60,000 bases of DNA, from contig CM075988.1 in NCBI GenBank assembly GCA_038087875.1, positions 8,000,001 to 8,060,000 of the forward strand. Direction: 5' to 3'. Below are positions 6,442-60,000 of this stretch, piece by piece. Positions within the stretch are counted from its first letter, which is position 1. Each line of letters starts with the position of its first letter. The DNA comes from Malacoraja senta. Taxonomy: Eukaryota. Both the position numbers and the translations under genes were made by a program. The notes below the pieces were generated by a model. It did not search any database. It saw only the letters and a program-made list of their open reading frames with translations, and was not told the origin of the DNA.

Positions 6442-6472
<31 letters not shown>

Positions 6473-18400: not shown

Positions 18401-21400
18401 GCAATTAACTTACAAACCCATATGTCTTTGGGATGTGGGAGAAAACAGGAGCACCCGGGGTAAATCCACACCGTCAGAAAGAGAACATATAAGTCACACT
18501 CAGACAAGACCGGAGGTCAGGATTGAACCCTACAACTGTGAGATATCAGCTCTCTCAGCACTGTCCTGCCCATTTACATGCTACCCTCAATATAAAATAT
18601 CTTAAATGTCTTATCCTTTGTTGCAGAAGGTATAAGTAACTTTAACACAAAGTGCTGGAGGAACTCAGTGGGTCAGGCAGCATCTGTGGAGGGAATGGAC
18701 AGAAAATGGTCCAGCTAAGGACAGTCTTTAGAAGAAGGCTCCCAACCCGAAATGTCATCTGTCCATTCCCTTCACAGATGCTGCCTGACTCACTGAGAAC
18801 CTCCAGCACTTTGTATTATGCACAAAATTCCAGCATCTGGGTCTCCATAAGTAAGTCTAAAGGGTCTGTCCCACTTTCACGACCTAATTCACGACCTCTG
18901 CCGAGTTTGCCCTTGACTCATACTCGCAGCATGGTCGTCACGAGGTCGTAGGTAGGTCGTTATGCTAGTCATAGGTACTCGTGGCATCAAGTAGGTCGGG
19001 GCGTTTTTTCAACATGATGAAAATGTCCACGAGTAAAAAAGGTTGTGAATTAGGTCGTGAAAGTGGTTCAGGCCCTTAAGATTGATGTAAACTTTAGTTT
19101 CTGTTTCACAAATTCCCTCGTGCTCAGCAGTGAGTTTTAAGTGCGTGAATTATAATTCCTATTTAAAATTAATTTTTATAAATTCTTTGTTTCAGTTTCT
19201 ACTGTAATCCAGTGTGTATTCCAATTTTTATTTCAAGCTTTGAAATGATTAAAAACATTAGATAAATTACATTTTTTATTTCTCGACATTGACTGCTGAA
19301 CAAGGTTGATAATATTACTGCAGAATATTGTGGATACACTTCAATTGATGCTTGACAGCCAACGATGTTGTGATGAAGGGTGGAGCCCATTGCCAGTGGT
19401 GGCACAATCTTCAAGGTTAGAAGCAAGTTGTGACTGTAGGATTCTTTATCGACGTTAGCTAATTAAGAAGTGAAGAGCGTGGAATGGATTTTTTATTGAT
19501 AATAAGGACTTCACCATCAACAGGAAGTGCTAATTTGTTTCATGGCTAGTTAATTTACTTTTGAAGCCTACTTAATCTCAATATGCACAAATGGAGCTGC
19601 CAATTTTCACACAGCAAAGATTCCAGGGTGAGATTAATTAGATTGAGATAATCTCATTGTGGCTTTGACTGGGAGTGGTGGGGTGGCTGAGTTTGATGAT
19701 GGGTTTAGTTTCATCCAACAGACAATTTATAGTTATTTGGCAGCATGCAATCTTGAACTTGCAATATTCACCGCAATTAATTGTATTTTGGAAGTAATTG
19801 TGCAGCCAAAGATGGCAAATTTTTTTTCTCTCTCTCCAGAGAGATTCCACCGATGACAATGAGATTAGTGAGCAGTTTACCTGATGCAGTGGTTTTGGGG
19901 TAGAACAATGGGAAATGTTTATTTCCAAAGAATGTTTCATAATCTTAACTTCACAGGAATTTTGAAGTGTTTAGTTTAGTTTAGAGATACAGCTCGGAAA
20001 CAGGCCTTCCGGCCAGCGAGATCTCACCGATCCCGGACATAAACCTGTGATCCCTGGACATTCGCACCATCCTACATACACCAGGGACAATTTACATTTA
20101 CACCAAGCCAATTAGCTTACAAACCCGTACGTCTGTTGGCAAGTGGGAGGAAATTGGAGATCCCAGTGAAAACCCTCGCAGGTCACGGAGAGATAGAACA
20201 AACTCTGTACAGACAAGTGCCCACAGTCAGAATCCAACCAGGGTCTCTGGTGCGTAGACAAAAATGCTGGAGAAACTCAGTGGGTGAGGCAGTATCTATG
20301 GAGCGAAGGAAATGGGAACAGGGTCTCTGCTGCTGTAAGGCAACAACTCTACCGCTATGCCACCATGCCGTCCTGAAGTGTAATGTAAAAATGGAGCAAC
20401 TAATTTGCGTTCAGCAGGGGCATGATAAAGTTCAAGATGAGCTCTGGAGCAGGTTCTATGGTCAAAGTCCTGCCTCCTGTCAGTGTTTGCTGGCATGTTT
20501 AAGGCTCGCCCTTGGTCTATCTGCAGTTAAAATTAACTTTGATTTGTGATTGTGTTAAGAGTTGGGACTTCATATTTAATCAGGGCATAAGGACATAATA
20601 AGTAGAAGCAGGTAGAAGTCAATAAAATCACAGCTAGCCAGTTACCTCAGTGCCACTTACATGCCTCAAGTCCTTATCCCAAAGATGGCACATTGCAGCG
20701 CCAGAGACCCAGGTTCGATCCTGACTTTGGGTGCAGTTGGGTGGAGTTTGCATGTTCTCCCTGTGAATGCGTGGGTTTTCTCATGGGTGCTCCAGCTCCA
20801 CCCTCCCCCCCCCCCCCACATCTAAAAGAAGTGCCAGTTTGTTGGTTAGTTGTCTTCTGTAAATTGTCCCCAATGTGTATCGGATGTGAAAGTGTGATAA
20901 CAGAACTAGTGCCAACAGGTGATCGATCGTCAATGTGGACTCCGTGGGCCGAAGGAATTATTTCCATACTGCTTCATTCAATCAATCAATCTCCTGATGT
21001 CTGCTATACTCAGCAACTACACGTCAATGACCATTCCATGTAGAGAATTGCAAAGATCCAATACCTATTGGGTGAAGAACTTCCTTCTCATCTCTGTCCT
21101 GAATTAGAGACTTTGTTCCTGGTTCTAGATGCCCAAGCCAGGAGAAGGGTTCCTCTTGCATGTAGGGATGGGATTATCTCTCTCTCTCTCCTGAGCTGTA
21201 GAGAGGGTAAACCCAGTCTCTCTGCATGGGACAAATCGTCCATCCCAGAGTCTAGAAATGTCTGGATCAAATTAGGATGTTTACTCCTCTGGGATGGGTA
21301 AACTAATCAGGCAAGTTGCGCTTGGGGAGAACATAAACCAGTTAGGATGTAGAAACAAGGAAACAAGATGCTGGTTTACAAAGTGAGACACAAAATGCTC

Positions 21401-24400
21401 GAGTAACTTAGCGGGTCAGGCTGCGTCACTGAAGGAAGACACAAAAAGCTAGATAACTCAGCGGGTCAGGCAGCATGTATGGAGAAAAGGAATAGGTGAT
21501 GTTTTGCTTCTCTAATGAACATGTTTGATTTGATGCTTCAGACTCATTGAAGCAAGTTAGGTATGCGCATGCATTCATTCTACCATCGTGAACTCTTCAC
21601 CAAAATCGCCTCCTTCAAGTTTGAGTGGAGAGAACAAAGTGAAATCATCAGTAGAATGATTTAAAATTATAGCCTTTTGTCATCATATGCTGACCCAAAA
21701 CATCACCTACCCTGTCTCTCTCCCCATGCTGCCTGACCCACTGAGTTAAACCAGCACTTTGTGTTTTGCTCAAGAATCCAGCATGTACAGTTCTTTGTGT
21801 CTCAATATAGTAGCTAATCCAGCTTCCCTGTCATTGCTAAATGCAGGTAGACAAAAATGCAGGATGGTTTTTGTTTACAAGCAAAATACAAAGAGCTCAG
21901 CCGGTCAGGCAGCATCTGTGATGGGAAATGGAGAGATGAAAGTTTCGGGACAGGACTCGTCTTCAGACCGAACCACTGAGTTCCTCCAGCAGTTTGTTTC
22001 TTGCACAAGATTCCAGCATCGGCAGTCTCTTATGTCTCTTGTATATTTTGTGAACCTTGTTCATGGTGCCTCTCTCTCCCCAACTCCCGGCGATCGTTCT
22101 GTTGCGATGATGATCCTGTTTCATTTCAGCCCTCCGGGAGGAGTTCCGCCTGCAGCCCAGCAGCGTGGTGGTGGCGTTAGGCGAGCAGGCGGATATGGAA
22201 TGTCTCCCGCCCCGGGGTCACCCCGAGCCAACCGTCACGTGGAAGAAAGATGGGGCACCTCTGGACGACAAGGACCAGCGTTACAGAGTGAGTCCACTGC
22301 TTGCCTACCTTCTCTGTTCCAATCACAGAGGGCAGTCATGTTAACATCAACTGACTGCCTTCTGTGCGGAAGCCATCCCATCAAACTGTGGAAGGACTCG
22401 GATGAGAAGAAGTGTGCAGGAAGCAACTGCAGATGCTGGTTTACACCGAAGATAGACACAAAATGCTGGAGTAGCTCAGCGGGTCAGGCAGCATCTCTGG
22501 AGAAAAGGAATAGGTGACGTGTCGGATTGCAACCGTGAAGGCATCCCTGAAGAAATGTCACCAATTCTTTTTCTCCGGAGATGCTGCGAGACTTGCTAAG
22601 TTACTCCAGCATTTTGTGTCTATCTTTGGACGAGAGGAAGTTGCTTTACCTGATGTCAAATGTAAACTTCCCATTTAAAAAAATGTGAGCAAAGCACAAA
22701 GGAGGAATTGAGTGGATAGGTAGTAATTGTGGAGGGAGTGGATAGATGTTTATTCCCTCCACGGATGCTGCCTGACAGCAGTCCTCCAGCATCTTGTTTT
22801 GTTCACGTTTCCTACATCTACAAAATCTTTTCTGTCCCCAATAAAAGATGTCCTATTTCACCATAATTTCAGGCAAATTTATACCGGTTATCGACAACCA
22901 AAGCTTAGGTTGTATCTTAGGTATCCTCTTGATTTATTCAAGAGAGAGTTCGATATAGCTCTTAGGGCTAACGGAATCAAGGGATACGGGGAGAAAGCAG
23001 GGACAGGGTACTTATTTTGGATGATCAGCCATGATCCTATTGAATGGCGATGCTGGCTCGAAGGGCCGAATGGCCTACTCCTGCACCTATTTTCTATGTT
23101 TCTAGGTACATTGTTGACAGTCATTGGTAAATTTCTCTTTGTTTATCTGTTTTAGATGGCCACTCTTTAGTGCAGTGGTTTACAGGATTATAGTATAATA
23201 TATAGAATATAGAACAATACAGCGCAAGAACAGGCCCTTCGGCCACAATGTCTGTGCTGACCATGATGTCGACTATTACTTATCTACCTGCATGTAACCC
23301 ATATCCCTCCATTCCCTGCATATCCATGTGCCTATCCAAACATGTCTGCTTCAACGACCACCCCAGGAAACATATTCCAGATACTCACCACCTTCTGTGT
23401 TTAAAAAAACAACTTGTCCTGCACATCTTCTTTAAAGTGTGTCCTTCTCATCTTAAACTGTTGTGCTGGGTGCAAGTTAGAATTTCATTGTCCTGTTTAG
23501 GACATATGCCAATAAAACACTTGACCTTTTCCCCCCAGTATTTGATTTTTCCATCCTGGGGAAAAAGGTTCTGACTGTCTACCTTATCTATGCCTCTCAT
23601 AATTTTATATCAGGTCTCCCACAACCTCCACTGTTTTAGAGAAAACAATCTTACTCACTCTAACCACTCTTTGTAGCGAATACCCCTGAATCCAGGCATC
23701 CAGTGGGAAATGTCCCCAGCCTCAAATGGTAAGCCTTCCAATCGAGATCCCATCACCGGGGAAGGATGATACATTTATCACCACAATATTCCTGGCATGC
23801 CCTGTGTCAGATTCTGTCAGTGCACCACACAAAGATTCATCTAGTAATTAGTTTTAGAGACACAGCGCGGAAACAGGCCCTTTGGCCCACCGAGCCTGCG
23901 ACGCCCAGCGATCACCCCGTACAGTTGCACTATCCTACACAATAGGGACAATTTATGATTCTTACCGAAGCCAATTAACCTACAAACCTGCATGTCTTTG
24001 GAGTGAGGGAGGAAACCGGAGCTCCTGGAGAAAACCCACGCGATCACGGGGAGAACATACAAACTCTGTATAGACAGCATCTGTAGTTCGGATTGAACCT
24101 GGGTCTCTGGCGCTGAAGGGCAGCAACTCTATTGCTGCACCACTGTGCCGCTTATAATCATCGAGAGGAAAACATCTCTGCCAGCCCTTCCATCTGTTCT
24201 CTCCTTTGACTGCCACCTATTGGATGTGCTTTCTCTATAGTAAGATTTATACTGAATTGCGTGCAAAAATAAATCACTGTACCTAGGTACATGTAACAAT
24301 AAATTACCATTGAATCACTATGAATATGAGTGATACACACTGCACTTTGATCAGCGGAAGAGCTGTGTAGATCTTTTCCTTATTTTAGAAATCCGAGGCT

Positions 24401-27400
24401 AAGATCTGTGCAAATTTCCCAACGACAGGATATGCCATTCCCTTTAAGGGAAAAATTGTGAATTTATTTTTAATATATTTTCTTTCAAAGGCGAGTGAAG
24501 TTTTTCATTTATAATTCTGGGTAGATGCCTCTTCCGTAGTTCTCCAGAGAACACCACAGAAAGGCCCTTTGCTGTATCTGGACTTTTCTTTCGGTTTCAT
24601 CTTCTTGTCTTTCCTACAGGCTACTGTCGGTAAACTCACCATTTTCTCCACACTGAGGAGTGACTCGGGAGTGTACATGTGTGTAGCAACAAACAAGGTG
24701 GGCCAGCGGGAGAGCAGAGCTGCCCGAATGTCCGTATTGGGTGAGTAACGCTCGACACATTGTTCACCAGTTGGTTTAAGAGTTGTTGTAAAGATTAGCG
24801 CAGGTTGAAAGACTCGACCTGGTGGTGTTGATGGATAGCAAACAGGGAGAACTTGCTCTTAGAGTCTGGAGTCTAGAGCCATGCGACACAGAAACAGAAA
24901 TGAGGAAAAACGTTTTCACACAGAGAGTGGTGAATCTCTGGAACTCTCTGCCACAGAGGGTAGTTGAGGCCAGTTCATTGGCTATATTTAAGAGGGAGTT
25001 AGATGTGGCCCTAGTGGCTAAAGGGATCAGGGGGTATGGAGAGAAGGCAGGTACGGGATACTGAGTTGGATGATCAGCCATGATCATATTGAATGGCGGT
25101 GCAGGCTCGAAGGGCCGAATGGCCTACTTATTTTCTATTCATCTATGTATCTAGGACTTTTGGCCCACCTTGTCCATGCTGACCAAGTTGGTATACTCGG
25201 CTAATCATATTTGCCCCCGTTTGGGCCATGGCACTCTGTACATCATTCCTATCCCGACCTATGTCCAAATGTCTTTTAACAGCATAATGATATGCTCTTC
25301 CCTAGCGTCCAGATACTGTCTACCCTCTGGTTTCCTCTCAGTAGTGTCATGGGTTAGAAACATTGACTAGTGCATTTGAATATTTATTTTTGCTTTTGAA
25401 ATGACCAGTAAATTATTATTTTCAAAAATGGAGCATTGGGGGGAAAAAAATCACCTTGTTCAAAGCTGAATTAATTCCAGCATACCAAATAAATGAGTTA
25501 CTTCTGACTGTAATAGTTAACAATCCTGCTCCATTCTTATCTTAGTCCAAATCTGCTGTCTTTGGCAAACTGACAGAAGCACTGGCGGTACATGTGCTTG
25601 CTGACTCAGAGAGCTAAAGGTTGCTGACTGAGCATTGGGCAGTCAATGTCCCGATGCCTGGGCTAGATGTGACAACGGCAAACCCAAGCATTGGAGGAGA
25701 TGGGAACCCTATGGATCAGAGTGAGAACCATCATCTTATTTCCTATGCCTGTAGACTCAGTGTGAATGGAAGCCTGAATCATACTTCCTGGTGGATGAAT
25801 GGTCCAGCCTCTACTCATCCATCTCCGAGGACACCAAATGCTTGAACTGGAGAATTGTTGTAGATAATAACATAAAGGTCTGAGGAGGGTTTTGATCCAT
25901 TGTCCTCTGGGTCATGGGCCCAGCACCTTTCCATTACGCCACTCCATTGAGTCATACAGCTTTATATTAAGCTTACTGTTTGAGGTACAGACTGAAAGAA
26001 AAGAGAGCAAACCTGGGTTCTATTCTTGGAAATGTGCACATGCTCTAACACATCTGCTCCGATGCATGGGTTTGACATTGCCTCCTTTAGCCCAAATTTT
26101 AGAATCTTAACTTACCCTCTGTCAGCAACTTTTACTTATTGATAGACACAGAATGCTGGAGCAAGTCAGCGGGCCAGGCAACATCTCTGGAGAAAGAGAA
26201 TAGGTGATGTCTCGGGTCGGAACCCTTCTTCAGACTGGAGAAATCTGAAGAAGGGTTCTAAGCCTAAATGTCACCTATTCCTTTTCTCCCGAGATGCTGC
26301 CTGACCCGCTGAGTTGCTCCAGCATTTTGTGTCTAGCTTCGGTATAAACCAACATCTGCAGTTCCTTTCTACACAACGTTTACTCATACATGGCCAGGGA
26401 AAGGCGGGAGGTCTGGCTGGCAGTGCGGACTGGTGTTTCTTCTGATGATAATCCTCTCGTCTTTCCTGCAGAAAAGCCAACCTTTGTTCAAAGGCCTAGT
26501 GATGCCACGGTAATGGCTGGAGACAGCGTGCAGTTTTCCTGTGACGCTCGCGGTGATCCATTGCCTCGAGTGGTTTGGAAGAAGGAAAATGGAGTGCTTC
26601 CCAATGGGAGGTCAGTGCAGTCACTGAATAATCCACCCAGTAGAAAGATACTGCTCCTGGAAATAACCATTTACGTATGTGTCTTGAGAATCGTTTTGTC
26701 TCACTGTCTGGGTGAAGAAGAGTTTGCACACAGCTTCTCGAAACATGGACATTGCAGTGATGAATGAATGAATGAATAAATTATTGGCCAAGTATATTAA
26801 CATACAAGGAATCAGCCGTGGTGCTCCGCCCACAAGTGACAACATGACATACAGTGACAATAAAGAATGAGGCATAAAGCATTAAACATTAATAATAAAA
26901 CATTATCGATTAAACATGTGAATTAAATAAAATACCAGAGCAAAAGGAGGCTACAGATTTTTGGTTATTGAGTAGAGCTGCTACTGTGGGAAAAAAGATG
27001 TGGCTATAAGAGCTGCTTCTTCACATCTCCAGGGATCTGGAATCCAACACTGGCTCCATTTATGTGGAGTTTGCATATTCTTTCTGAAACCACGTGGGTT
27101 TGTTCCATGTGTTCCAGTTTCCCTCCACATCCCAAGGATGTGCGGGTTGGTTGTTCAATTGGCTGCTGTGAGTTGCTCCTAGTGTGTAGGTGAGGTGGAA
27201 TCTGGGGTTGAGAGGTTGGGGCTTGGAGAGTTGTATTGTCATACAGCTCGGAAACAGACCCTCTGGCCTAACTTGCCTTTTCCGACCAAAATGGGTTGGA
27301 ATAGGATAAATGTACAAACAGGTGCCTGGTGGGCAGTGCAGACTCTGTTAAACAGAGATATACACAAAAAGCTGGAGTAACTCAGCGGGACAGGCATCAT

Positions 27401-30400
27401 CTCTGGAGAGAAGGAATGGGTGACGTTTCGGGTCGAGACCCTTCTTCAGACTCTGTTAAACAGAGGGCAGCTTCCGTGCTATATTTCTCTATGACTCTGT
27501 CTCAAAGAGCTGAGAAACCATGAAGCGCAGTTGTCATCAGTCTGAGGAAGGGTCCCGACCTGAAACATCACCAGTCTAAATAAGAGTCCCAACCCAAGAC
27601 TGTCTGTCCATTCCCTCCCTAAGTTCCTCCAGACCGTTTAATTTTGCATCTTCAGTTTCTTGTGTCTCTGAAACATAGTCACTGGCGGGATGTAGCAAGT
27701 GCAGCTGTTAGCTTACTGAGGGATAAGTGAACAGGAACATCGGGGAGAGATGCACATCATCCCATGCAATGGTTGATATCTACCTGAGTGGGCTTGACTC
27801 AATGCTTTACCATGATAGTGCAGCACATTCCCAGTAAGGCAGTGATGTGCTGGATCTTCACTGTTGATTGTTACATTCAGTCATAAACACATCTCAGCTT
27901 TATGTTACTGGGTGGTGGTGGAAGGAGCAGAGGTGTATATTTCGTAGCAAGGTGGGTGTTGGGAGAGGGGTGGAAATCGATTTCCCCTTCTGATCGAATC
28001 GGTGCTTTGATTCAACAGGTACGAGGTGAACTCTGATCACACAATAAGGATTCATTACACAGCTCCGAGTGACTCCGGTGTCTACACCTGCCTGGCTGAG
28101 AATGCAGTGGGTTCAGCTGCTGCCTCTGCCTCCCTCGCAGTACGAGGTATGTGTGAGTTTGCTATGGTTCACCCTGGTGGGAAACCTAACGGTGGCGTTA
28201 ACTGAAACCACACCCAGTCACAAGCAGTGGGGGGAAGAAATGTATGACTGAAAGCAGATAATGGCATGAATTATGTGAATAAGTGGGTCTCCATGTTGTA
28301 ACTCAGCGTTTCTCAACCGGGGTTCCTCGGAATGCTCGGGGTTCTGAGAGAAATAGTGATAAATGGGCTAATCATATGTAAATGCATTTTTGAGTCATTT
28401 TTGTGTTTAATTTCATATTCGTAATTTTATTATACACGTACATCATATTTAGCGACGTCTATTTAGCATATTTAGTTACATCATATTTAGCGACGTCTAT
28501 ACGGCGCCAGTGTGAAACGACCTTTAGTGGTCAGTGGACAGGAGCTGTAGATAGATAGATAGATAGATAGATTTTATTCTTGTCATTTGAACCTCAAAGA
28601 GGCTCAAACGAAACTCCGTTTCCACAGCCATACAAACAAAACAATTCCTACACGACACACAAACAATTCAATTTACAGAAAAAACATCCATCACAGTGAA
28701 TCTCCTCCTCACTGTGATGGAAGGCAAAGTCTTTTCTCTCCCCTGCACCATTTTGCTCCCGATGTTGAAGCCCCAGGCGGGCAATGTTAAGTCCCACGGC
28801 CGTTGAGGCCGCACCGGGCGGTGTACTGCTTCGCTCCGGGCCCAAAAGTCACCAAGTTGGAGCCCCCGGCGGGCGCTGGAATATCCCGCGGCCATTAAAG
28901 CCGCGCCGGGCGATGTAAGGCCCCGCTCCGGGTCGTTCCAAACCCGCGACACGGGCGGGAGAAGTTGCGTTGCGGGAGCTCCGGAAAGCGGTCTCTCACC
29001 CGGACCCGCGAGCTCCCGATATCACTGTCCGCGACTGGAGCCCCCAGGTCGTCCCGGTCGGAGGCCGCTCCACGGAGCTAGGCCCCAACGACAACGGAGA
29101 CCCGACAGGGAAAAGGTCGGGTCTCCCGTGCAGGGAAGAGATTTTTTAAAGTTTCCCCCTCCCCCCCCGCCCCCCCCGCCCCCCACATATACACAGTTAA
29201 AAACAGTATAAAAAAACCCACAAACAACTACATTTACCGAGACAAAAATTAAAAAAAGACAAACGGACTGCAGTCGAGCCGCTGCCGTTAGGCACCGCCA
29301 CACCCACATGCGTGTGACGGATTCATGTATCATCAAGTAACTCACTTGAGTACAGACGCATGCACCGCCTCCGTCAGTCCTGTTTGTGCTTCTTGGCATG
29401 CAGGTACAGTCCCTCATTCACCCACGTTATTTAATAATTTTTACCTATCATTTAGGGATGTTATATGAATTATATGATTTCAGGTTTTTTTTATATGATT
29501 TTAAGTTCTTTTTTGCTTAAACCAGTTATCAGAAAAATATATTATGTTTGTCTTATGAACTTTATGAAAGAGAAAGAAAGAGATTAATAAAGATCTAATA
29601 ATTTTTATGTAGGGGTTCCCTGAGACATGAACATTATTTCAAAGATTCTGCTAGGGTAAAAAGGTTGAGAAACGCTGTTCTAACTGGTTAAAACAGTGAA
29701 GTAGTGTATTGACAGCAGCAATTTCTAATGAAATAGTTCTTTTTACTCGCATACTGTAGTACATTAAACTCAATTGATAAACTGCAACTAACGTCTCTTG
29801 ATGTGAATGGGGCCAACAGGTTGAGGGGAGACCTGATAAAATAATATAAAATGACAAGAGGCATAGATAGGACATGTAGTCAGAACCTGTATGTCAGGGT
29901 GGAAACGTCAAGGGTAAGTGGGCAGAGCCTTAAGGTCAGAGAGAGGAAGATGTGTGGGGCAAGTTTACATGGAGTGGTGGATATCTGGAATGTGCTGCCA
30001 GGGGTGGTGGTGGAAGCAGATACAACAGCGGCATATAATTAGATGGGCAATGCATACTGTATTGAATGGAAGGATATGGATCATATGCTGGTAGTGGAGG
30101 TATGTTCAGCACAGATAGTGTGCGCCACAGAGCCTGTTCCTTTGCTACAATGTTCTATGTTCATTGCTCTAGGATCTTATTGATCCTTTGCTAGCCATCA
30201 ATAACGTCATCCATGCATTCAGACTATGTAATCCTTAGTGAACCAACTGGTCTTTTTCTGTCTTGCACTGTTATGGGGCTGTCCCACTGTACGAGCTAAG
30301 TCAAGAGTTCTCCCGAGTTTCCCCTAATTCGAACTCGGAGAATTACGGTAATAGCCGCTTGTAGGTACTCGGGGCTCTCGTGGACATTTTTCAACGTTGA

Positions 30401-33400
30401 AAAATCTTCATGAGTCTTCCCGAGCTTACCGCGTTTCCCGTGTACCTGCCGTTAGCGTGTTACGAGCCGCTAAGAGACGTCCCGAGCTCCGATGTACCTG
30501 CAACGTACATTCTACGTGCTTACCACGAGTTTGATTTTTTTTAAACTCGGGAGAACTCTTGAATTAGCTCGTACAGTGGGACAGCCCCTTTATGGGTTCA
30601 ATATTTATGACCCCTCACGCTGAAGAGACAAATAGAGTAGGAACAACAAATGATGGTTGGTGCAGTTGATCCGCATTAAATGAAACATAATTGCGCATGA
30701 CTGCTGTTATTGTGGCATGTTATTATTACCTTCAGATGCTCTTGACACTGGTGAGAGGGAGAGACAAGAGGACACCCAAAGGCAGATGCTGGATGTCCGT
30801 GTACACCTGGCCAACATTACCATTCTTCCATCATCTTCGCATGTCCATCTTCACTGGAAGGTGTGCCTCTGATCTACTTACCTAATTTCAGGACATTACC
30901 ACTTGATTCTAGACACAATTGTCATGCACTTCACTCTATTCAGCGTGATGCTATGCATATATTCTTGCGCTGTGTGTATAGTTTAGAAATCATAGTATGT
31001 TTTGGAAGGTGTTCTCCATTATATCTGCAGTGAGCCAAGGGAGGAACAGCAGTGTAACTGAATGACCAAAGCAGTGACCTGGCCGGGTAATCCAGGGACA
31101 TGAATTCCACCCAAGCTGCAGGAGAATTTAATATCATAAATCAATCTCGAATAGAAAGCAAGATTCTGTGATTTTTGACACAATTGGAATATTGTAAAAT
31201 GTATCTGATCTGCTAATGGTGTCTTTATTCTCACATGTACCAAGGCCCAGTGAAATACTTTTCCTTCAGCAAGACTCACCACACATCAGCTCAATCCCCA
31301 TGTTAGTACAGAAATTACAAAACAGCCCACTGATTATATATGTAAGAGGCGCCATTTTACAGTTCCAGATACAGCTGTCCATCTTTGGAAAAGGAGTTTG
31401 CATTCCACCTGATCTAGTTGCAGCAGTCGTCTAGTTAATGAGCAGCAGTCACTGGCTGCCCCAGCAATGGCAACTGCCTGGGCGTGAATAAGATAGATAT
31501 CTTCCTCAAGAGTAAAAGTATCAATGGAGTGAACAAGACGTTTAGTTTAGTTCAGTTTAGTTTGGAGATACAGCATGGAAACAGGCCCTTCGGCCCTTCT
31601 GGGTCCGCACTGATCAGCGATCTAACACACTGTTACAAAATTTTGAGATTTAAAAAATAAAGTCTGCAATTTATCCCATCAGATAAAGCATAAAAGGAAG
31701 TTTAATTTGACACTTAATTCACTTTCATATCTTCAGTATTAAAAAAGTTATGGCCATTATCATACTCAGAAATTAGCATCTAGTTCCCTATTGCTTTTCC
31801 ATTGACTTAACACAAAAGCTGTGATCGAGGACAGTTAAAAGCCCATAACTTTCTTAAAAATTATGGTAACTGAAAGAAATTTTCAGGTATTATAGATTGA
31901 AGCATTCTGAAACAAATATGAAACAATCTTACTTCGAAGACATGAAAGTAAAGCATATAATTAGTTAGTTACCTAATTGTAGCTAATTACAAAATTCAAT
32001 TACTAGATCTAAACATCTATCAATTTCTTAAGAATAGATTAACATTTTTAAATAGCCTAAGTGTCCAAATAACATTCACACAATAATTCACAATATAACA
32101 TAATTTTTAAATCTAATTTTCATGAATTTACAGGCCAAATGGAAGGAATTGAATGTTTAATACCTGTAAATTAATGGGGATTTAATTCATCTTGCGAGTG
32201 AGAATTTCTGGAACGCGATCTTTTGGAACGTTCATTTGCGGTGAATTTAACCCCGTATTGGCATGAAAAATACTGCCGTTAATTCGGGGAATAAAATCAC
32301 CGTGTCGCATGAAAAAATGTGAATTAAAGGCTTCTTAAGAAGCACTTTTATACATTTAAAGAAAGCACTTTCGTTTACCTGTCCATTGTGTGAAATCTGT
32401 CCCCGTTATTGGCGTTGACGCTTCAGGAGCTGCTTTTAAAATGACTGTAGCGCTGACATTGACGATTTAATTTAAAAAAAAAATTCACAAAACGCCGGTA
32501 GGAACGATTTTGTCAGCGAAGGTTTGTACTCCAACAAAATATTTCCAGGACAAGGGAGGAGAAACCGCGTTTTAACCCCGCCCCCCCCTTAAAGGCGCCA
32601 AAATCGCGCACACGGCCAGTGGCAGAATTACAGCGCGACTGAAGGTAAGTTTTGTAACATACCTACTAGTACTATCCGACACACACTAGGGACAATTTAC
32701 ATTTATAACAAGCCAATTAACCTACAAACCTGCACGTCTTTGCAGTGTGGGAGGAAAACTAAGATCTCGGAGAAAACCCACACACGGTCATGGGGAGAAC
32801 GTACAAGCTCCATACAGACAGCACCCGTAGTCAGGATTGAACCCGGGTCTCTGGTGCTGCAAGGCAGTAATTCTACCACTACACCACCATGCCTTAACGC
32901 TTAATGCTTTAGCTGGCTTCTTCTTAGTATTTACTTTACTGATATACTCTGAATTTCTACCGCTGGAGTCTGAATTAAAGTATTGCATCATAATGTGATG
33001 AAAATAACCTCACTTTCCAAGTCTTTATCAGCTTCTACCTGTCTCGCAGGAGAATAAATTAAGTTGGTTCAATAGTGTAAAGTTTGCCGTAATGAGTTGG
33101 TAGCTCACCTCTCCTGCTCCTTCGTTACATCGGAGTCAATAGTAATGTGGGAAAGGGTGCAAATTGGGTTATCCACGCATTAATTGGTGTTTTACAGATT
33201 ATTATTATATGGCATGATTGGATCTTAACGTTCAGGATGATTATTGTGGATGATGAATGCAATCTCTGACTGTATCTGAAAGTGTCTGTATCTGAACCTT
33301 GTGATGTCATGAGCTTTCATGAACCAACCTTCCTTCCATTGACTCCATAAATACCTAATGCTCCCTCGGGAAGGCCAACAGCCCAATCAAGGACGCGTCA

Positions 33401-36400
33401 CGCCCTGGCCACTCCCTCTTCTCGCCTCTCCCATGCCAACCAAGGTGCCCCCATCTAAGATAATCTTATTTGCCCATATCCCCCTAAACTTTTCCTACCC
33501 ACGTACCTATCCAAGTGCGGTTGTAGTACCTGCCTCAACCTTCTCTTCTGGCAGCTCGCTCTATATACCCGCCACCCTCTAAGTGAAAGAGGGAAGATCC
33601 CGTATGTGCACTGGGCATGAGCCCAATCTGTGGCTGGATCCCTCGAATGTTAGCAGTGAAGTAATGTTCTATTTCCCACCAGCAGCTACCACCCTGATAA
33701 CATTGGAAACGGAGCGTCTAAAACGCCTTAATTTCCCCCAGGATTGTGGGGACTCATATTTTCTCAAGCAGCTCTCAAGCACTTCAGTCCTAAGGCTGCA
33801 AGCCATGCTTGTTTAAACCGGTCATCGTATGACACCCAATTCCATTTCACCGATTCCATTTCAAAAGTAACCTCGGATGCTGCTCACGTGAGAAGCGTCA
33901 CGACGTGGAATTACAGGACAGGGATCAGGATCTGGGAGTTGTGAGATACTGACTACTTCCCCCGAGCGAGAATAACTAATTCGGACTAATCCCTGTAATT
34001 CCACTTGATCTTCTCCTTTCATGCAGGTTATTAAAACCAATGCCCACAGGGGGCTGAAAGTAAGTTGTACTATCTGCATAAATCTCACTTGATTTCTGCC
34101 CTCTGCAGGTTCTTTCACAGCCGCAGTACGTTGAGGGATTTAATGTTTTCTTCCGTTGTATGGTGCCCCTGAGCACGGACTGGATGGTGCGCCAAGTTGC
34201 CGACCCAGAGGAACAGAATGCAGAGCTGACCACGCTGAGGAGGGGCTTCATGTACGAGTTCAAGGTTCAGGCGTACAGTGGGATGTTCTGTGGTCCCGAC
34301 AGTAACAGGAAGCAAGGAAGGATTCCAGAGGAAGGTGAGAGCAGGGCAGCAGATCGATGGGTGCCGATGTCTACAACCACTAGTTACACCAGAATGGGCC
34401 GGGGGATCGGTAGAATCGAGGAAGGTGTAACACAAGGGGAGACCCTGCAGCCCACTGTGTCTATGTCTGGTACAGGTTTAGACTTTAGAGAGATACAGCA
34501 CGGGAACAGGCACTTCGGCCCACCGAGTCCGTGCGATCACCCCATACATTAGCACTATCCTACACACTGGGGACAATTTACAATTTAACCAAATTAACCT
34601 ACATACCTGCGCATTTTTGGAGTGCGGGAGGAAACCGGAGCACCCAGAGAAAATCCACGGGGAGAACGTATAAACTCCATACCCGTAGCGGTAGCTGTTC
34701 AGACTGATCCTGCTTTCACCACACTGCATCAGTCTGAAGAATGGTGCAAAACTGAAACGTCGCCTATCCCTGTGCTCCTTGACCCGCTAAGTTACTCCAG
34801 CACAGTGGCACTTTTTCTGATTTGGAATCCTGCAGGTATTGGCATCCACATACAGTTTCTGCCTCCACCACCCATTTAGCCACCCCCTTAAATAAGCCCC
34901 TGAGGAACATATTTATTGTCATATCTTCTCTAATCCGCCTACTAATTATTATAAATTTATGCCGCTCGGTTTTTGAACTCTCAGGTGCACGAAACAAACC
35001 AGTCCCATTTATTTTGTTTTAACCCCTCCTTATTTTTTTACACTTCACAGATGTCTATTAGTCTTAAAGAAGGAACTGCAGATGCTGGAAAATCGAAGGT
35101 ACACAAAAATGCTGGAGAAACTCAGCGGGTGCAGCAGCATCTATGGAGCGAAGGAAATAGGTAACGTTTCGGGCCAAAACCCTTCTTCAGACTGATAGGG
35201 GGTCTCGAAGCCCTCCGTTTTTTCCTCGACCGTAGAAGCAATCTATACCCGGCCACTGACACCCTCCTCCGCCTAGCGGAGCTGGTACTTACACTTAATA
35301 ACTTTTCATTTGACTCCTCCCATTTCCTCCAAATACAAGGCGTAGCTATGGGCACACGCATGGGCCCCAGCTACGCCTGCCTCTTTGTCGGGTACGTAGA
35401 ACAATCCTTGTTCAATGCGTACCAGGGCCCCATCCCCGACCTCTACCTCCGCTACATCGATGATTGTTTTGGTGCCACATCCTGCACCCACACACAACTG
35501 ACTGACTTCATCCGCTTCACCACCAACTTCCATCCGGCACTCAAATACACCTGGACCATTTCGGACACTTCCCTACCATTCCTTGACCTCACTATCTCCA
35601 TCGCAGGTGATAGACTCCTTACCGACATCCACTACAAACCTACCGACTCCCATGGCTATCTGGACTACACTTCTTCCCACCCTGCTTCCTGTAAGGACTC
35701 CATCCCCCACTCCCAATTCCTCCGTCTATGCCGCATCTGCTCCCAGGATGAGGCGTTCCACACCAGGGCATCTGAAATGTCCTCATTCTTCAGGGAACGG
35801 GGGTTCCCCTCCTCCACCATAGATGAGGCTCGCACCAGGGTCTCTGCCATACCCCGCAACACTGATCTCTCTCCCCATCCCCCCACTCACAACAAAGGCA
35901 GAGTCCCCCTAGTCCTCACCTTTCACCCCACCAGCCGTCACATACAACAAGTGATCCTCCGTTAGTTTCGCCACCTCCAACGTGACCCCACCACTCGCCA
36001 CATCTTCCCATCTCCCCCCATGTCTGCCTTCCGCAAAGACCGCTCCCTCCGTAACTCCCTTGTCAATTCTTCCCTTCCCTCCCATACTACCCCCTCCCCT
36101 GGTACTTTCCCTTGCAACCGCAAGAGATGCAACACTTGTCCCTTCACCTCCCCCCTCCACTCCATTCAAGGACCCAAGCAGTTGTTCCAGGTGCGACAGA
36201 GGTTCACCTGCATCTCCTCCAACCTCATCTATTGCATTCGCTGCTCTAGATGCCAGCTGATCTACATCGGTGAGACCAAGCGGAGGCTTGGCGATCGTTT
36301 CGCCAAACACCTCCGGTCGGTCCGCAATAACCAACCTGAACTCCCGGTGGCTCAGCACTTCAACTCCCCCTCCCATTCCGTATCTGACCTCTCTGTCCTG

Positions 36401-39400
36401 GGTCTCCTCCATGGCCACAGCGAGCAACACCGTAAATTGGAGGAAATGCACCTCATATTCCGCTTGGGCAGTCTACATCCTGGGGGCTTGAACATTGAAT
36501 TCTCCCAATTCTGCTAGCCCTTGCTGTCCCCTCCCCTTCATCAGCCCTCTGGTTGTCTCCTCCCCTCCCCCAGCCCTCGGGCTCCTCCTCCGCCTTTTCC
36601 TTTTTTCCTTTCTTCTCCCCACCCCCTATCAGTCTGAAGAAGGGTTTCGGCCCGAAACGTTACCTATTTCCTTCGCTCCATAGATGCTGCTGCACCCGCT
36701 GAGTTTCTCCAGCATTTTTGTGTACCTGTCTATTAGTCTTCTCTGTTGTGAAGTTAAAATCCTAAGCTGAGACAATCTTTCCTCTTGCAATTTGAAAGTA
36801 GGGAAATAATGTTGAATATTATTATCGTCTGGCAGCATGGATAATGGTTACTTTAGCCTTTGGGGAACCGATTAGGGACTGGAAGTCACAGATATAAAAG
36901 AAAGGGTAGGAGAATTGAGAGTGATCTGAGGAAAGACGTGATCATGCTGTGAGTGTCTGGAATCTAGAATGCGCAGTGTAGTGCCACAGTGGTGGAGCCC
37001 TAGAGCTGCTGCCTCACAGAGCCAGAGATCAGGGTTCAATCCTGACCTCGGCTGCTGTCTGTGTGGAGTTTGCATGTTCTCACTGTGACCACGTGGGTTT
37101 CCTCTGGGTACCCACATCCCAGTCATGCAGATTTGTAGGTTAATTAGCCCCTATCAACTTGTCCCTAGTGTGTAGGGATTAGATGCAAAAGTAGGATAAC
37201 ATAGAACTAATATGAATGGGTGATGGGTGGTCAGCATGGACTTGATGGGCCAAAGGGCCTTTTTCCCTGCTTTCTCACAAAACTGAACTAAACCAAGTTG
37301 GTGGAGGTAGTATCCTGTGAGAGGAAAGTGATGTAGTGAGGAAGTTCTGTTTTAAACAAAAAGAGCTATTACAGATTCTATTGAGGTAGTAAAGACAGAC
37401 TCTGTAAAACCTATAATTTCACAGAATTATCCCTGCACAATGTCCCCCTCACATTTGGCACAGTTCCTTTAAACCATTCCAATGTTTTATGGATTGAAGT
37501 GGTTGGTGAAATCTTTAATGGTGTGAGTAGTTGACAGTGACTAGTAATCTGCCGTCTCTTGTGTCTCATGTTCAGTACCCGACGCTCCCCCTGATGGTGT
37601 TATCATTGCGACCACAGAAAGGAGGAATGACAGTATTGTGGTCAGCTGGAAGCCACCTCCTCCCGAGTCTCACAACGGCATCATTAAAGGTTACAAGGTA
37701 CGATGACTGTGGGTAAGAGTGGAATGGGACTCGTTTATCGTCCCGGAAAGCTGTCAATAAAGGGCCTGTCTCACTCGGGCATCATTTGAGCGTCACGCAG
37801 GTGGCGCGCGAAGATTTTGTGAATCCCAAAATCCTGGGGCGCCGCGCGCGACCGCGCGTCACTGCCTACGTCACCATGCACCATGCGTGGATCACGTGCG
37901 TGTCACGACCGCGTAAATTATGTTGTGTAAGTGTCGCGCATATGACGCCCAAGTGGGACAGGCCCTTAATGGTTCAATTGCAGACTGCAGAGTTAGATTT
38001 CTGAAGAAAAGGTTTCATGGTTGGCTGCATGAACTGAAATCCCAATGAAAATTGATAGCCCCTTAGATGGACTCATGGATATGCAGGGAATGTAGGGATA
38101 TGGATTAGTTTAGGATTGTGTTAGGCACAGACATGGTGGGCCGAAGGGCTGTTCCTGTACTGTACTGATTCTGAATTCTGAATTCTGAAAAAGTAGGATT
38201 CTGAAGAGACCCTTCAGCCCATTGAGTCTGCACTGACCATCAAGCACCCTCTGATACATTAATCCAATCCTAACCCATTTTATTCTCTCGACATTCCCAT
38301 CAATTCCTCCCGGATTCTCGATCTCCTCTGCACACAGTAATGAATTCACGGTGTCCAATTAAACTACCAACCAGTGTGATATTGGGATTACCGTACTTTA
38401 GAGATATTGCATGGAAACAGGCCCTTCATCCCATTGACTCTTCAGTCCAGTGAACCGACACACTAGGGACAATTTACAAAGCCAATTAACCAATAAACCT
38501 GCACGCCTTTGGATTGTGGGACGAAACCAGGGCACCCGGGGAAAACCCACGCGGCCACAGGGAGAACGTGCAATCTCCGTACAGACGGCAGGTGTAGTCA
38601 GAATCGAACCCGAATCTCTGGCATTGTTTCGGTAGCAGCTCTACCGCTGCTCCACTGTGCCACCCAAATGTGGAAGTAAACAGAGGCATCTGGAGCAAAC
38701 TCTTGCAGTAATGAGGAGAAAGTGCAAACTCTACACATACTGGAGCACCAGAGGTCAGGATTAAACCTCGGCAGCTTGAACTGTGGGGCAGTGCCTCCAC
38801 TTGCTGCAACACTTGGGCTCCACATTACCCTTGCAGGTAATGAATGTGGCTCACTCACCTCAAATTCCGAAAAGGAGGGATCAATGGAAATATTTAAACA
38901 GGATGGAGATAATGTTGTGAAAGATTGGAGGAGTGAAGCTTCTGAGGAACTGGCATAGAAGAGTTGAGGCCTGTATGGTTGACCATGTTGAATGGTGGGC
39001 CGGCTGGACAATGCTACTCCTCCTCCTATTCACAACATAGCACATGGAGCAGTACAGCACAGGAACAAGCTCCTTGCCACACAATGTCTGTGCCAAACAT
39101 GATGCCAAGATAGACACAAAATGCTGGAGTAACTCCGCGGGTCAGGCAGCATCTCTGGAGACAAGGAACAGGTGACGTTTTGGATCGAGACTGAGCCTTC
39201 AGTCTGAAGAAGGGTCTCGACCCGAAAGGTCACCTGTTGCTTTTCTCCAGGGATGCTGCCTGACCTGCTGAGTTACTCCAGCATTATGTGTCTATCTTCG
39301 GTCTAAACCTTTCCTACACATGATGCCAAGATATGATTTGCTTGCATTCTTGCATAGTTGATACAGAATGCTTTCTCTTCTTTCCTTGGTGATAGGTTTG

Positions 39401-42400
39401 GTGCTTGGGGAATGACACACAGCACCACAGAAACTGGACAGTGAACAGCAGCACTCACCATCTGGAGATCCCTGCCATGAATTCTGGGATTGAGTACCGA
39501 GTGCAGATCGCAGCCATCAACGGTGCGGGGATCGGAGCGCACACCAAGCCTCAGTATGTCTACCTAGGTCAGTACACAGGGAAGGCCAGTGGCTCATTGA
39601 CACCAGTTTCCCACTCTCTCTCTGTCTCTCTGCCAACCCACCCAAGCCTCTCTCGTTCTGTCACTTGTGCAGGTCAATCTCCAGAATGGAGATGAGGAGG
39701 AATTTCTTCAGCCAGAGGGAGGTGCATCTGTGGATTCATTGCTACAGATGGTCGTGGAGGCCAAGACGTTGGTATTTCTAAAACAGAGATTGATAGATTG
39801 TCGATTAGTAAGGGTGTGACAGGTTACAGGGAGAAGGCAGGAGAATGAGGTTGAGAGGAAAAAAATCGCTCAGCCATGATTGAATGGCGGAGGAGACTCG
39901 ATGATTGAATGGCGGAGGAGACTCGATTGTTGAATGGCATAATTCTGTTCCAATGTCTTATAGAACCATGTGAGACAGAATCTTTATCTGTATTGTAGAC
40001 TCCTAGAAACTCCCAACCAGTTGTGTTTCTACAGTTAAATCAGCTCATCACACATTAACCATATTCCCCAACGTACTGCATTACTGACTGTATCTCTGCT
40101 GATGTTAAATGGACACTACACTGTGGGATAGACACAAAATGCTGGAGTAACTCAGCGGGACAGGCGGTGTCAGACAGCGGGACAGACAGGCGATCTGAAG
40201 AAGGGTCTTGACCCGAAACATCACCCATTCCTTCTTTCCAGAGATGCTGCCCGTCCTGCTGAGTTACTCCAGCATTTTGTGTCTAGCTTCGGTTTAAACC
40301 AGCATCTGCAGTTCCTTCCTACTCCACTGTAGGACTTAGTATTCCTCCCAGCTAGTTTGCTCTATTATTTATCCTCCATTGGTTAATTAATTTGTATATA
40401 ATTAGGCCCTCTGCTTTAATTGAAAATTAGTTAATGCTCTAATTAGAACATTATTCCTTGAAAGATTATACCCACCAAAAATCTTCAGTCCCTGCATTTC
40501 CACTACCTCTCGATTCTCCCAGGGTCCCACGCATCAATGGTGCCCGTCATTCAATAGTTAAACGCATTAAGGCCTTTGTGATAATTTTGCATCACTTTCC
40601 CAGGGTTTTGGAGATGGTGTTTGCACTGGTTATCACCTAATCAAACTCCATAGATCTCAGAATGTTTCCCAAATGTTGGAACGTTGCGAAGGTAACCCCA
40701 CTATTGGAGATAGAAAGGAACCATGGATCAGTTAGTTTGAAATCAATAGTAGGAAAAATCCTGGTATTATTAATTAAGGAAGTGGTAACAGGACATGAGG
40801 AAATAATAATAGGATTGTGCGGAGTCAAAGGTAGACAAAAATGCTGGAGAAACTCAGCGGGTGAGGCAGCATCTATGGAGCAAAGGAAATAGGCAACGTT
40901 TCGGGTCGAAACCCTTCTTCAGACTGATGTGAGGGTGGGGTGGGGGCGGGAGGAAGAAAGGAAGAGGCGGAGCCAGTGGGCTGAGGGAGAGCTGAGGAGG
41001 GGAGGAGAAAGTAGGGACTACCTGAAATTAGAGAAGTCAATGTTCATACCGCTGGGGTGCAAACTGCCCAAGCGAAATATGAGATGCTGCTCCTCCAATT
41101 TACGGTGGTCTACGGTGGTCCTCACTCTGGCCATGGAGGAGGCCCAGGCCAGAAAGGTCGGATTCGGGATGGGAGGGGGAGTCAACGTTGATTTAGTAAA
41201 GGGAAATGGCATTAAACAAAACTAAAGAGTTTTTGAAGTTGCAACAAGCAGAATGTAAAGGAAACCCAGAGGATGTGGTGTGCATGGACATCTAGAAGAC
41301 TAAGTTTGTGTATAGAAGATAATGAAGCAAAATTGGGGGTGATGTACCGACCTTGATGGATGCTTGGAAAGAAGACTAGGAATCAATGGGTCATATTTGG
41401 ATTGCAAGGCTGCTGTCGGCACCTGCCTGTAGGTGTCCTGGCTATTTATAATGGGCCACTCCTGAAATAATATATAATGTAAGAAATAGAAGTTGGAGGA
41501 GGCCATTCAATCCCTCTTACCTGTGTCATCAGTCAGTAAGAACACGGCTAACCTGTTACCTTGGCACCACTTTCCTGTACTAATCCTATATTCACTGCTT
41601 CCCTATCAAAGAGAAACTACCAGGTCTGTCTTGAATATATCCATTCACAGAGCTTCCACAAACTCTTGGAGGTAGAATTGGCAGTATTCCCAGAATAGGC
41701 TGGTCAGGCTGCATTTGGAGTACTGTAAGCAAATGTGAGCCCCATGTCAGAGGAAGGATGTGCTGGCTCTGGAGAGAGGGTCCAGAGGAGGTTTACAAGA
41801 ATGATTCTGGAAATGAGTGGGTTAGCATATGATGAGCATTTGATGACACTGTGCCTCTACTCGCTGGAGTTTAGAAGGTTGAGGGGGGACCTCATTGAAA
41901 CTTACAGAATAATGAAAGGCATAGATAGAGTGGATGTGGAAATTATGTTTCCACTGGTGGGAGAGTCCAGGACCAGAGGTCATAGCCTCAGAATTAAAGG
42001 GCGCTCTGTTAGAATGGTGGTGAGGAGGAACTTCTTTAGTCAGAGGGTAGTTAATCTGTAGAACTCATTGCCACAGAGAGCTATGGAGGCAAAGTCAATG
42101 GATATTTTTAGGGCAGAGAAAACAAATTCTTGATTAGAACGGGTGTCAAAGGTTATGGGGACAAGGCAGGAAAATAGGATAGGAGGCAGAGATCATCCAC
42201 GATTGAAAGACAGAGTAGACTTGATGGGCCGAATGGCCTAATTCTACTCCTATAACTTGTGAACTTGTGAATTCCAAAGATTCATGACTCCCTGCTTGAT
42301 AAACCTATGACCTCTGCCTGAATGGCCAACCCCTTATGTTGAGACATCGATGTCTGGTTCTGCAGTAAATATTCTTAACAGAGTAAACACGGTCCTTGCA

Positions 42401-54850: not shown

Positions 54851-54976
54851 TTGACAATTGCAGGTATTACAGTCAACTCAGCCAAATCTTCACCACATTA
54901 TCTTGCATATTGTTTTATCAATGGTCTGAAACAGAACACCAAAACCGATTCTTTATGGACTTAATTGGAAGAGTGA

Positions 54977-55643
54977 AGGGCCTGTCCCACTTGCGTGTCC
55001 TTGGCACGCAAATTACGCGACCTCGTGGTCGCGTTGAACCGAGACGGTCGAGCGAAGGTCGGGCGCGATTACATACGTACGCACAGCCGTCTGGAGCACA
55101 TGACGTCATTTGAAGATGGACACAAAGCTGGAGTAACTCAGCGGGACCGGCAGCATCTCCGGAGAGAAGCAATGGGTGACGTTTCCTGTCGAGACTCTTC
55201 TTCAGTCTGAAAAGAAGGGTCTTGACCAGAGATGCTGCCGGTCCTGCTGAGTTACTCCTGCATTTTGTGTCCATCTTCAATTTTCTTGGCCCCGCTCTGG
55301 GAGTAGAAGTGGGGGCGGATCCGGACCGCAACGGCCGTGAGCCCCAGGCCGAGTTCGGCGATCGTTTGCCTGCTCCTGCTGCTGTAGAAGGTGAGACGTT
55401 GCGTCGCGCCAGGGTCTTGGGCCTGTCCCACTTTGGCCGTCAGTTCCGCGACAGGCCGTTGGCGCGCGAAGATTTCGTTCACTACAAACATTTCGGAGCC
55501 CCGTGCGATGTCGCGCACAACTCCATACCCCTCCGCGTTTCTAAGTGGGTCCGGCCCCGCGCGGCCACACGATGCCCGTGCCCGCAACGCAACCACGAGG
55601 TCGCGTAATTTGCGTGCCAAGGACACGTAAGTGGGACAGGCCT
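54977..55643. mobile_element. Harbinger-type MITE with nested Penelope-derived palindrome
   Basis: TIR of about 55 bp, TGA TSD on both sides; nested element at about 55112-55280. Confidence 0.83.
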
Positions 55644-59619: not shown

Positions 59620-60000
59620 AGGTACTTTCCCCTGCAACCGCAGGAGATGCAACACCTGTCCCTATACCTCCCCCCTCGACTTCATCCAAGGACCCTGACA
59701 GTCTTTTCAGGTGAGGCAGAGGTTCACTTGCACCTCCTCCAACCTCATCTACTGTATCCGCTGTTCCAAGTGTCAACTTCTGTACATCGGCGAGACCAAG
59801 CACAGGCTTGGCGATTGCTTCGCTGAACACCTCCCCTCAGTCCGTCTTAACCAACCTGATCCCCCGGTTGCTCAACACTTCAACTCCCCCTCCGATTCCC
59901 AATCCAACCTTTCTGACCTGGGCCTCCTCTATTGTCAGAGTGAGGCCCAGCGCAAATTGAAGGAACAGCACCTCATATTTCGCCTGAGTAGTTTACACCC
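59620..60000 (+). mobile_element. Penelope-like GIY-YIG fragment, runs off the window
   Basis: GTFPCNRRRCNTC...[20 protein letters not shown], homologous to 36101-36480; in-frame stop present. Confidence 0.88.

Follow-up and report, generated by a model that had tools for sequence, protein, structure and literature searches.

A 60,000-nucleotide stretch of the genome of the skate Malacoraja senta (assembly GCA_038087875.1, contig CM075988.1, positions 8,000,001 to 8,060,000 of the forward strand; hereafter the window, numbered from its first letter) contains many short insertions built from the terminal repeat (pLTR) of a Penelope-like element (PLE), often as two inverted arms joined head to head. 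Our analysis suggests that these short copies, or stubs, are probably dead-end products of Neptune-type PLEs, made one insertion at a time, with the hairpin formed anew rather than inherited. An earlier note on the same DNA had proposed an independently amplifying hairpin family resembling MITEs (miniature inverted-repeat transposable elements); this part of its account was not supported, as the centres of the hairpins differ from copy to copy. The coordinates of the individual features are collected in Table 1.

A profile of the pLTR, made from 11 window arms, recovered 46 arms, which together span 4,312 bp (7.2% of the window's length); the reversed window, used as control, yielded none. Ten short copies carry two arms head to head, comprising all seven examples named in the earlier note, each close to where it had placed them, and those at 18637-18845, 21839-22031 and 52505-52626; two further arrangements, at 11327-11664 (arms 73% alike, separated by 138 bp) and at 27335-27658, were excluded as probably separate insertions. 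The one-sided tail that had been described as usual is indeed clear in seven of the ten copies (six by profile alignment, that at 18637 by eye), partial in two (39105 and 52505) and absent from one (55108), with no copy among the ten bearing a tail on both sides. The window arms have a median identity of 86.8% to the window consensus. Because the arms of most short pairs are less alike (83-92%) than those of the PLE copy with coding sequence in the window (97/98), the stubs are older than that coding copy. Single arms bear target-site duplications (TSDs) of their own and are therefore taken as complete insertion events; they fold no better than shuffled sequences (z -0.83 to 0.08), and Rfam scans of the window and of the coding pLTR returned hairpin matches below threshold only. 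Internal deletions are visible in 39105, 22416 and 55202.

The joints at the hairpin centres speak against copying of the two-arm form itself. Relative to position C3, the inner breakpoints of the ten copies lie at (-2,+15), (+37,+2), (-2,+56), (+8,+20), (-4,-3), (-2,-5), (+53,-1), (-5,+8), (+20,+33) and (-4,-4), so that nine or ten of the centres are distinct; the centres show overlaps of 3-10 letters or fillers of 1-25 letters, with overlaps of 3-9 letters in four of the ten copies. Moreover, the two arms of a copy tend to belong together: 23 non-consensus letters are common to both arms of a copy, against 9.3 in shuffled pairings (p=0.0004), and the hairpin form is found in several groups of an arm tree (99 columns, supports 0.8-0.92, arms of fewer than 55 columns left out, two open reading frame (ORF)-linked loci with arms). 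The copy at 50445-50677 is the exception, with arms in different tree groups—a pattern that fits two templates. Comparison of the tail-bearing arm with the other arm gave 68 differences, 11 of them recurrent and none present in more than three of nine copies. In the same tree, the ORF-linked arms at 35067, 36628 and 40823 cluster only with the single arm at 20255 (support 0.84). Short-copy-only clades, which the earlier note had regarded as a sign of independent amplification, do appear as local groups lacking an ORF-linked copy in this 99-column tree.

Public contigs from four of 24 listed runs were also compared with one arm (window 50410-50600). Matching contigs numbered 331,998 (X1), 359,966 (X2) and 377,364 (X4) in three DNA-type runs from three organisms, which bears out the proposed high copy number, and 28,845 in X18, a run that is probably also DNA; contig depth profiles were not taken as copy numbers. 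The outer loose ends of these contigs pile up at the tail end and the pLTR end (50452-3 and 50480-7). At the hammerhead start, 2,137-2,441 contigs diverge from the reference, with an agreement of 0.35-0.40 compared with 0.34-0.43 in unique flanks, and the consensus of their loose ends is purine-rich. Among the 15 of 759 joint rows listed, two are of centre type, with 0-8 contigs per run, and no centre junction is dominant. Eleven of these 15 rows connect the tail end to the pLTR end on opposite strands (window 50444-50496; 8-39 contigs per DNA run) and could reflect close neighbours, tandem stubs or assembly effects; outer ends opposed in this way, with about 45 bp between them, are also seen at 21691-22031 in the window. 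In run X2, a go-back joint at window 50492-50536, with 13 letters between, reaches a depth of 11,020 and may mark a pLTR-derived tandem repeat of about 57 bp in organism B. No head-to-tail array of hammerhead units was found among the 46 arms; a partial direct pair at 21366-21507 has no core.

A TSD score of at least 9, a level seen at 1.4% of 1,980 random sites, was obtained for 10 of the 17 elements examined: five two-arm copies (18637, 22416, 26140 and 40127, 14 bp each; 39105, 16 bp), four single arms (9655, 13 bp; 12481, 14 bp; 20255, 15 bp; 27358, 19 bp) and the coding copy (14 bp). These lengths are 13-16 bp apart from the one of 19, as the earlier note had observed, and exactly 14 bp in six of the ten; the 16-bp duplication may include up to about six element-end letters and the 19-bp one up to about four. 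Four of the seven examples named earlier have a TSD, and none was found at 17667, 50445 or 55112. Stubs and coding copy agree in TSD length and tail, which supports the view that the reverse transcriptase (RT)/GIY-YIG protein of a PLE made the insertions.

The outer ends of the arms form two discrete positions about 35 nt apart, falling from C3 at +85 to +105 and +112 to +128 in the window and at +75 to +92 and +113 to +119 in a related PLE family, and the inner ends pile up just before the hammerhead core. About 17 of the 26 arms that hold C3 end within about 10 nt of it, as read by eye; an automated count of upstream extension (9/26) was not used, since the inverted arm that belongs to each copy confounds it. 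The PLE protein of an anole has been described as nicking and extending both target strands in vitro, and as initiating reverse transcription internally on the RNA, at two adjacent sites flanking the tail, with a start region 111-118 nt into an ORF beginning at stem II (PMC11167929). In the skate family and in the related one alike, 110-120 nt separate the tail end from the beginning of helix II.

The order of events behind such stubs can be sketched, and we give its detailed run-off steps about even chances of being right. Nicks staggered by about 14 bp would produce the TSD, and each nicked strand would prime one complementary DNA (cDNA); the tail would be one-sided because one cDNA starts at the tail end and the other at the pLTR end. 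The RNA would begin at an initiator-like TCAGT just before the hammerhead, and both cDNAs would run off this 5' end after about 95 and 130 nt, or halt earlier. Microhomology or filler might then link the two cDNA ends head to head, sometimes via the self-complementary TCAG-N-CTGA at the run-off point. This end is self-complementary at eight of nine bases, and a symmetric centre would therefore be favoured. Single arms would arise where only one cDNA is retained, and ORF-bearing copies where the downstream pLTR serves as template for a cDNA, either from the outset or after a jump.

The window holds only three ORF-bearing PLE loci. One of them, the coding copy, has an ORF 64-67% identical to shark and ray proteins and, across 48% of the query, 91% identical to a protein of Leucoraja erinacea. 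It combines RT with a C-terminal GIY-YIG domain in one ORF (with one in-frame stop), as well as a pLTR, an inverted 5' copy, a one-sided tail and a TSD, as in endonuclease-bearing (EN+) PLEs; the match to GIY-YIG (PF01541; E 1.6e-4) is slightly below the curated cut-off, and full-length homologues (800-900 aa, 50-54% identity) bear RT and PLE domains. The linker that joins RT to the endonuclease carries C-x4-C-x2-C, a motif conserved in P0118, P0001, P0003 and P0006 and one residue shorter in the homologue P0119. As this cysteine motif is a mark of Neptune and Nematis (PMC8557442), the coding copy looks Neptune-type, an assignment drawn from the linker rather than from a tree. The ORF start in two relatives (L012 and L007) is not preceded by a pLTR or tail. 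A stop codon after an ATG in the pLTR, present in five of six tail-bearing arms of the main short subfamilies, was considered as a sign that the short lineages are non-coding; it was dropped because the relatives' ORF starts outside the pLTR and tail and the peptide occurs in none of the compared proteins. The 3' untranslated region (UTR) of the coding copy is pyrimidine-rich, and at 36615-36632 a pyrimidine tract followed by CAG, resembling a splice acceptor, lies just 5' of helix I, where an intron of the fly Penelope ends (PMC4209133). The CAG is kept in many stubs, whose RNA would therefore have been either unspliced or initiated locally. Members of an older pLTR subfamily have an upstream block of about 90 bp in common (window 1277-1365 and 47383-47463, and upstream of 3538 and 7844; 74% between 1389 and 47513), and a longer UTR was therefore once present; no ORF adjoining this subfamily was found in the window.

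The hammerhead ascribed to the insertions holds only as a motif of the minimal PLE type, predicted from its letters, and not as one that Rfam recognises: the Rfam hammerhead had no match in the window at E<=1, nor in the coding pLTR at E<=10. A minimal core—CUGANGA, GAAA and UH, with G10.1-C11.1 in helix II, an extra base after A9 and a palindromic helix III stub—is present in 10 of the 22 arms that span the region. Among 16 rows chosen from motif-holding arms (two from the related family), 87.5% of helix II cells are paired, with both-side changes in two of four pairs, compared with 16-47% in slid controls. The skate motif also aligns nearly gap-free with that of a distant relative, with changes on both sides in helix II as well as at one pair of helix I. 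Helix I spans two base pairs in the skate arms rather than four or five, the third pair being unpaired in 14 of 16 rows; minimal PLE hammerheads have been described (PMC4209133, PMC6155905), including one with a 2-bp helix I in the fly Penelope (PMC4209133).

The related family, represented by 80 metagenome loci chosen by their ORF (and thus giving no ratio of stubs to coding copies), probably has an invertebrate host; an exact 29-nt skate pLTR pattern had no match in metagenome contigs. Upstream of C3 it carries TATA at -39 and TCACT at -6 to -2, the counterpart of skate TCAGT. Its ORF-linked copies have inverted arms of varied lengths, with 15-16-bp TSDs in L029 and L057, and it also includes pLTR-only hairpins with a one-sided tail (L028 1382-1569; L072 1907-2038, 14-bp TSD; L075, 11-bp TSD). 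TSD scores exceeded 10 in four of 14 elements, the null maximum being 10 in 150. Free inner ends lie at -7 to -2 in 6 of 21 hand-picked cases (p ~0.013, post hoc), and single arms beginning at these positions are found as well. At L028 3071-3166, an inverted pLTR piece (+11 to +78) is joined to the tail alone (+84 to +118), a non-overlapping pattern as expected of two primers on one RNA. Additionally, an unrelated repeat family that also bears hammerheads has a head-to-head hairpin stub at L073 1380-1600, with two cores about 34 bp apart.

Three other origins for the stubs were weighed against formation anew at each insertion. If the whole hairpin of 200-240 bp were transcribed and retrotransposed as a unit, the similar sizes, the TSDs at the outer ends, the very high abundance and the two copies readable as having a symmetric centre in common would be accounted for; however, centres and arm lengths are copy-specific, the asymmetry of the arms is not fixed, subfamily letters match within copies across several subfamilies, no frequent centre joint stands among the listed rows, single arms have TSDs of their own, and the same forms occur within the ORF-bearing related family. 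We regard such a MITE look-alike as highly improbable. Much the same slight chance is given to two further routes: loss, after insertion, of the interior of longer copies bearing inverted pLTRs, or self-priming of the second arm on an antisense transcript. Self-priming has been proposed for junction palindromes (PMC3846280), and, for deletion, coding copies have the same outer structure and internal deletions do occur in 39105, 22416 and 55202. Deletion, however, should leave random remnants of UTR or ORF, yet about 17 of the 26 arms that hold C3 end close to it, and self-priming alone explains neither why the tail marks the two measured start sites nor why the arms in 50445-50677 belong to different subfamilies.

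The remaining alternative resembles short interspersed elements (SINEs): short RNAs of pLTR plus tail, transcribed from stubs by an internal promoter with read-through into the flank, would be mobilised in trans by the PLE protein, and each insertion doubled into a hairpin. The centres would stay unique, with the single arm forming short-only clades. We consider this unlikely, while granting that a non-autonomous single-arm template is possible because the main short subfamilies lack an ORF-linked copy in the window. Short-only groups in the tree contain no ORF-linked copy, and three ORF-bearing loci stand against 46 arms. Furthermore, pLTR sequences suffice to mobilise unrelated DNA in a rotifer (PMC3846280), the promoter of the fly Penelope is internal (PMC8557442), and retrozymes have been proposed as non-autonomous pLTR derivatives (bioRxiv 10.64898/2026.07.22.740005). 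On the other hand, the anole protein requires RNA to +172 (PMC11167929), and the stubs lack these roughly 55 nt past the start region; the short copies are older, so that coding copies of their kind may have become scarce or decayed; and the purine-rich consensus of loose contig ends at the hammerhead start indicates that some arms run on into a UTR-like stretch, as 3538, 7844 and 47513 do in the window. A specific form, in which an RNA of about 135 nt is used in trans by a Neptune-type protein and two run-off cDNAs, likened to retroviral strong-stop DNA, prime each other via the self-complementary end, seems similarly unlikely. Were stubs of this SINE-like kind, skate genomes would contain some 10^5 or more fossil copies of this run-off intermediate.

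Several observations weigh against formation anew as the origin of the hairpins. A TSD was sought without success in five of the ten two-arm copies. In 39105 and in 55108 alike, the centre is open to interpretation as a fold at TCAG-T-CTGA; as the two copies differ in subfamily letters, it is simpler to suppose that microhomology produced this fold twice. No ORF-linked copy of the main short subfamilies occurs in the window, where the autonomous source of most stubs is not seen. In run X2, one centre row has a depth of 692 over five contigs, exceeding the single-copy level, and the contig test is blunt: joint counting was saturated in three runs, leaving some joints uncounted, hairpins can interrupt contigs, and the listing may miss symmetric fold-backs. 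The putative transcription start is a position deduced from the letters, and the in vitro work on start sites concerns a Poseidon element, whereas the skate element appears to be Neptune-type.

All PLE stubs of the window lie within introns of a ROBO-like Ig/fn3 gene on the plus strand, with exons at 24620-24740, 26471-26614, 34110-34336, 37577-37698 and 39399-39568; the closest match of the exon at 26471-26611 is ROBO2/ROBO1 (E 3.7e-35). Other repeats, with an inverted end resembling GGGCCTGTCCCAC, occupy 18863-19078, 37760-37969, 51452-52500 and 54918-55610, and the stubs at 51401, 52505, 55112 and 55839 are nested in, or cut by, repeats with such ends. Long CA-rich arrays resembling microsatellites lie at 6430-6940 and 45910-46380, and a gap of 200 N is found near 49,800-50,000.

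Table 1. Coordinates of PLE-derived features in the window.
Feature	Position	Strand	Details
Predicted minimal type I hammerhead	36633..36663	+	CUGANGA, one extra A, 4-bp helix II, GAAA, palindromic ACGU, 2-bp helix I
Coding PLE copy, 5'-truncated	35066..36726	+	RT-EN (endonuclease) ORF remnant between inverted and tailless pLTRs
Inverted pLTR with tail of coding copy	35067-35204		inverted relative to 36628-36726
RT-EN ORF remnant of coding copy	about 35205-36517	+	one in-frame stop at 35963-35965
Tailless pLTR of coding copy	36628-36726	+	downstream of 3' UTR
Left TSD of coding copy	35052..35065	.	right copy 36727-36740; 14/14 match
Second ORF-linked copy	40823..41186	-	pLTR, 3' UTR, endonuclease end; no inverted arm
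Third PLE ORF fragment	59621..60000	+	continues past window edge
Two-arm stub	17668..17877	.	tail right; arms overlap 3-4 letters at centre; no TSD found
Two-arm stub, older subfamily	18641..18845	.	tail right; 14-bp TSD, 2 mismatches
Two-arm stub, decayed	21839..22031	.	tail right; 5-letter centre overlap
Two-arm stub	22414..22627	.	tail left; 14-bp TSD, 2 mismatches (22400-22413 / 22628-22641)
Two-arm stub	26140..26372	.	both arms extend to hammerhead start; tail right; 14-bp TSD, 2 mismatches
Two-arm stub	39113..39317	.	tail internally deleted; exact TSD <=16 bp (39097-39112 / 39318-39333)
Two-arm stub	40129..40322	.	left arm short, 22-letter filler; tail right; 14-bp TSD, 2 mismatches
Two-arm stub	50445..50677	.	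tail left; arms from different subfamilies by letters; no TSD found
Two-arm stub, short	52505..52626	.	3-letter centre overlap
Two-arm stub without tail	55112..55283	.	folded at 9-bp quasi-palindrome TCAG-T-CTGA; no TSD found
Single arm with tail	9654..9797	-	13-bp TSD, 1 mismatch
Single arm	12475..12580	+	14-bp TSD, 2 mismatches
Single arm, 65 bp, coding-type subfamily	20254..20318	-	inside SINE-like repeat; 15-bp TSD, 1 mismatch
Single arm without tail	27358..27450	-	exact TSD, 15-19 bp

The architecture of the stubs is already in print for PLEs: inverted pLTRs with tails, junction palindromes and solo pLTRs have all been described (PMC3846280, PMC8557442, PMC8969392). In the openly available literature searched, we found neither a description of this skate repeat nor a twin-priming, strong-stop or two-cDNA run-off model proposed for PLEs. 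The origin of inverted pLTRs and tails has been called undefined (PMC8557442), and the steps after priming unvalidated (PMC11167929). Against this background, the stubs preserve, in large numbers, natural products of PLE integration with a sharp geometry of two outer ends, piled-up inner ends and a 14-bp stagger. This makes the two-cDNA run-off model testable by counting, and the stubs would extend the anole result to a second PLE clade. Automatic annotation, in turn, would mislabel a repeat that makes up 7% of the window as a MITE or a miRNA-like hairpin.

The skate stubs are unlike MITEs in having no common interior, asymmetric ends, long and variable TSDs, and arms that are the termini of a retroelement. 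MITEs derive from class II elements. The likeness lies in short length, inverted arms, a TSD and high copy number (PMC8969392). Non-LTR (long terminal repeat) retrozymes are likewise non-coding, hammerhead-bearing and pLTR-derived, and they accompany PLEs, in one case in a chondrichthyan; they are, however, defined as head-to-tail tandems, whereas the skate copies are dispersed and head to head or single (bioRxiv 10.64898/2026.07.22.740005). The minimal hammerheads of PMC4209133 share with the skate motif the extra base before helix II, G10.1-C11.1 and the palindromic 15.2-16.2, and dual opposite-strand motifs 100-700 bp apart, together with widespread single motifs, were ascribed there to truncated PLEs. 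The cases reported there come from schistosome and other genomes, with no shark or skate among them, while the skate motifs often lie less than 30 bp apart and have a helix I of 2 bp. The anole Poseidon element PAc resembles the skate element in its two internal tail-bounding starts, the cutting and extension of both strands and a similar distance from the hammerhead to the start, and differs in its clade and in an ORF that begins in the hammerhead, the skate element having the linker cysteine motif and relatives with an ORF start outside the pLTR and tail; pLTR-only hairpins are not treated in the main text of that study (PMC11167929). Finally, EN+ PLE insertions share an inverted 5'-truncated pLTR, a 30-40-bp tail on one end, a TSD, an overlap or palindrome at the inverted junction and solo pLTRs, with TSDs of 8-10 bp in rotifer examples compared with about 14 bp in the skate (PMC3846280, PMC8557442, PMC8969392). 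What sets the skate window apart from these is that pLTR-only forms far outnumber the copies with an ORF.

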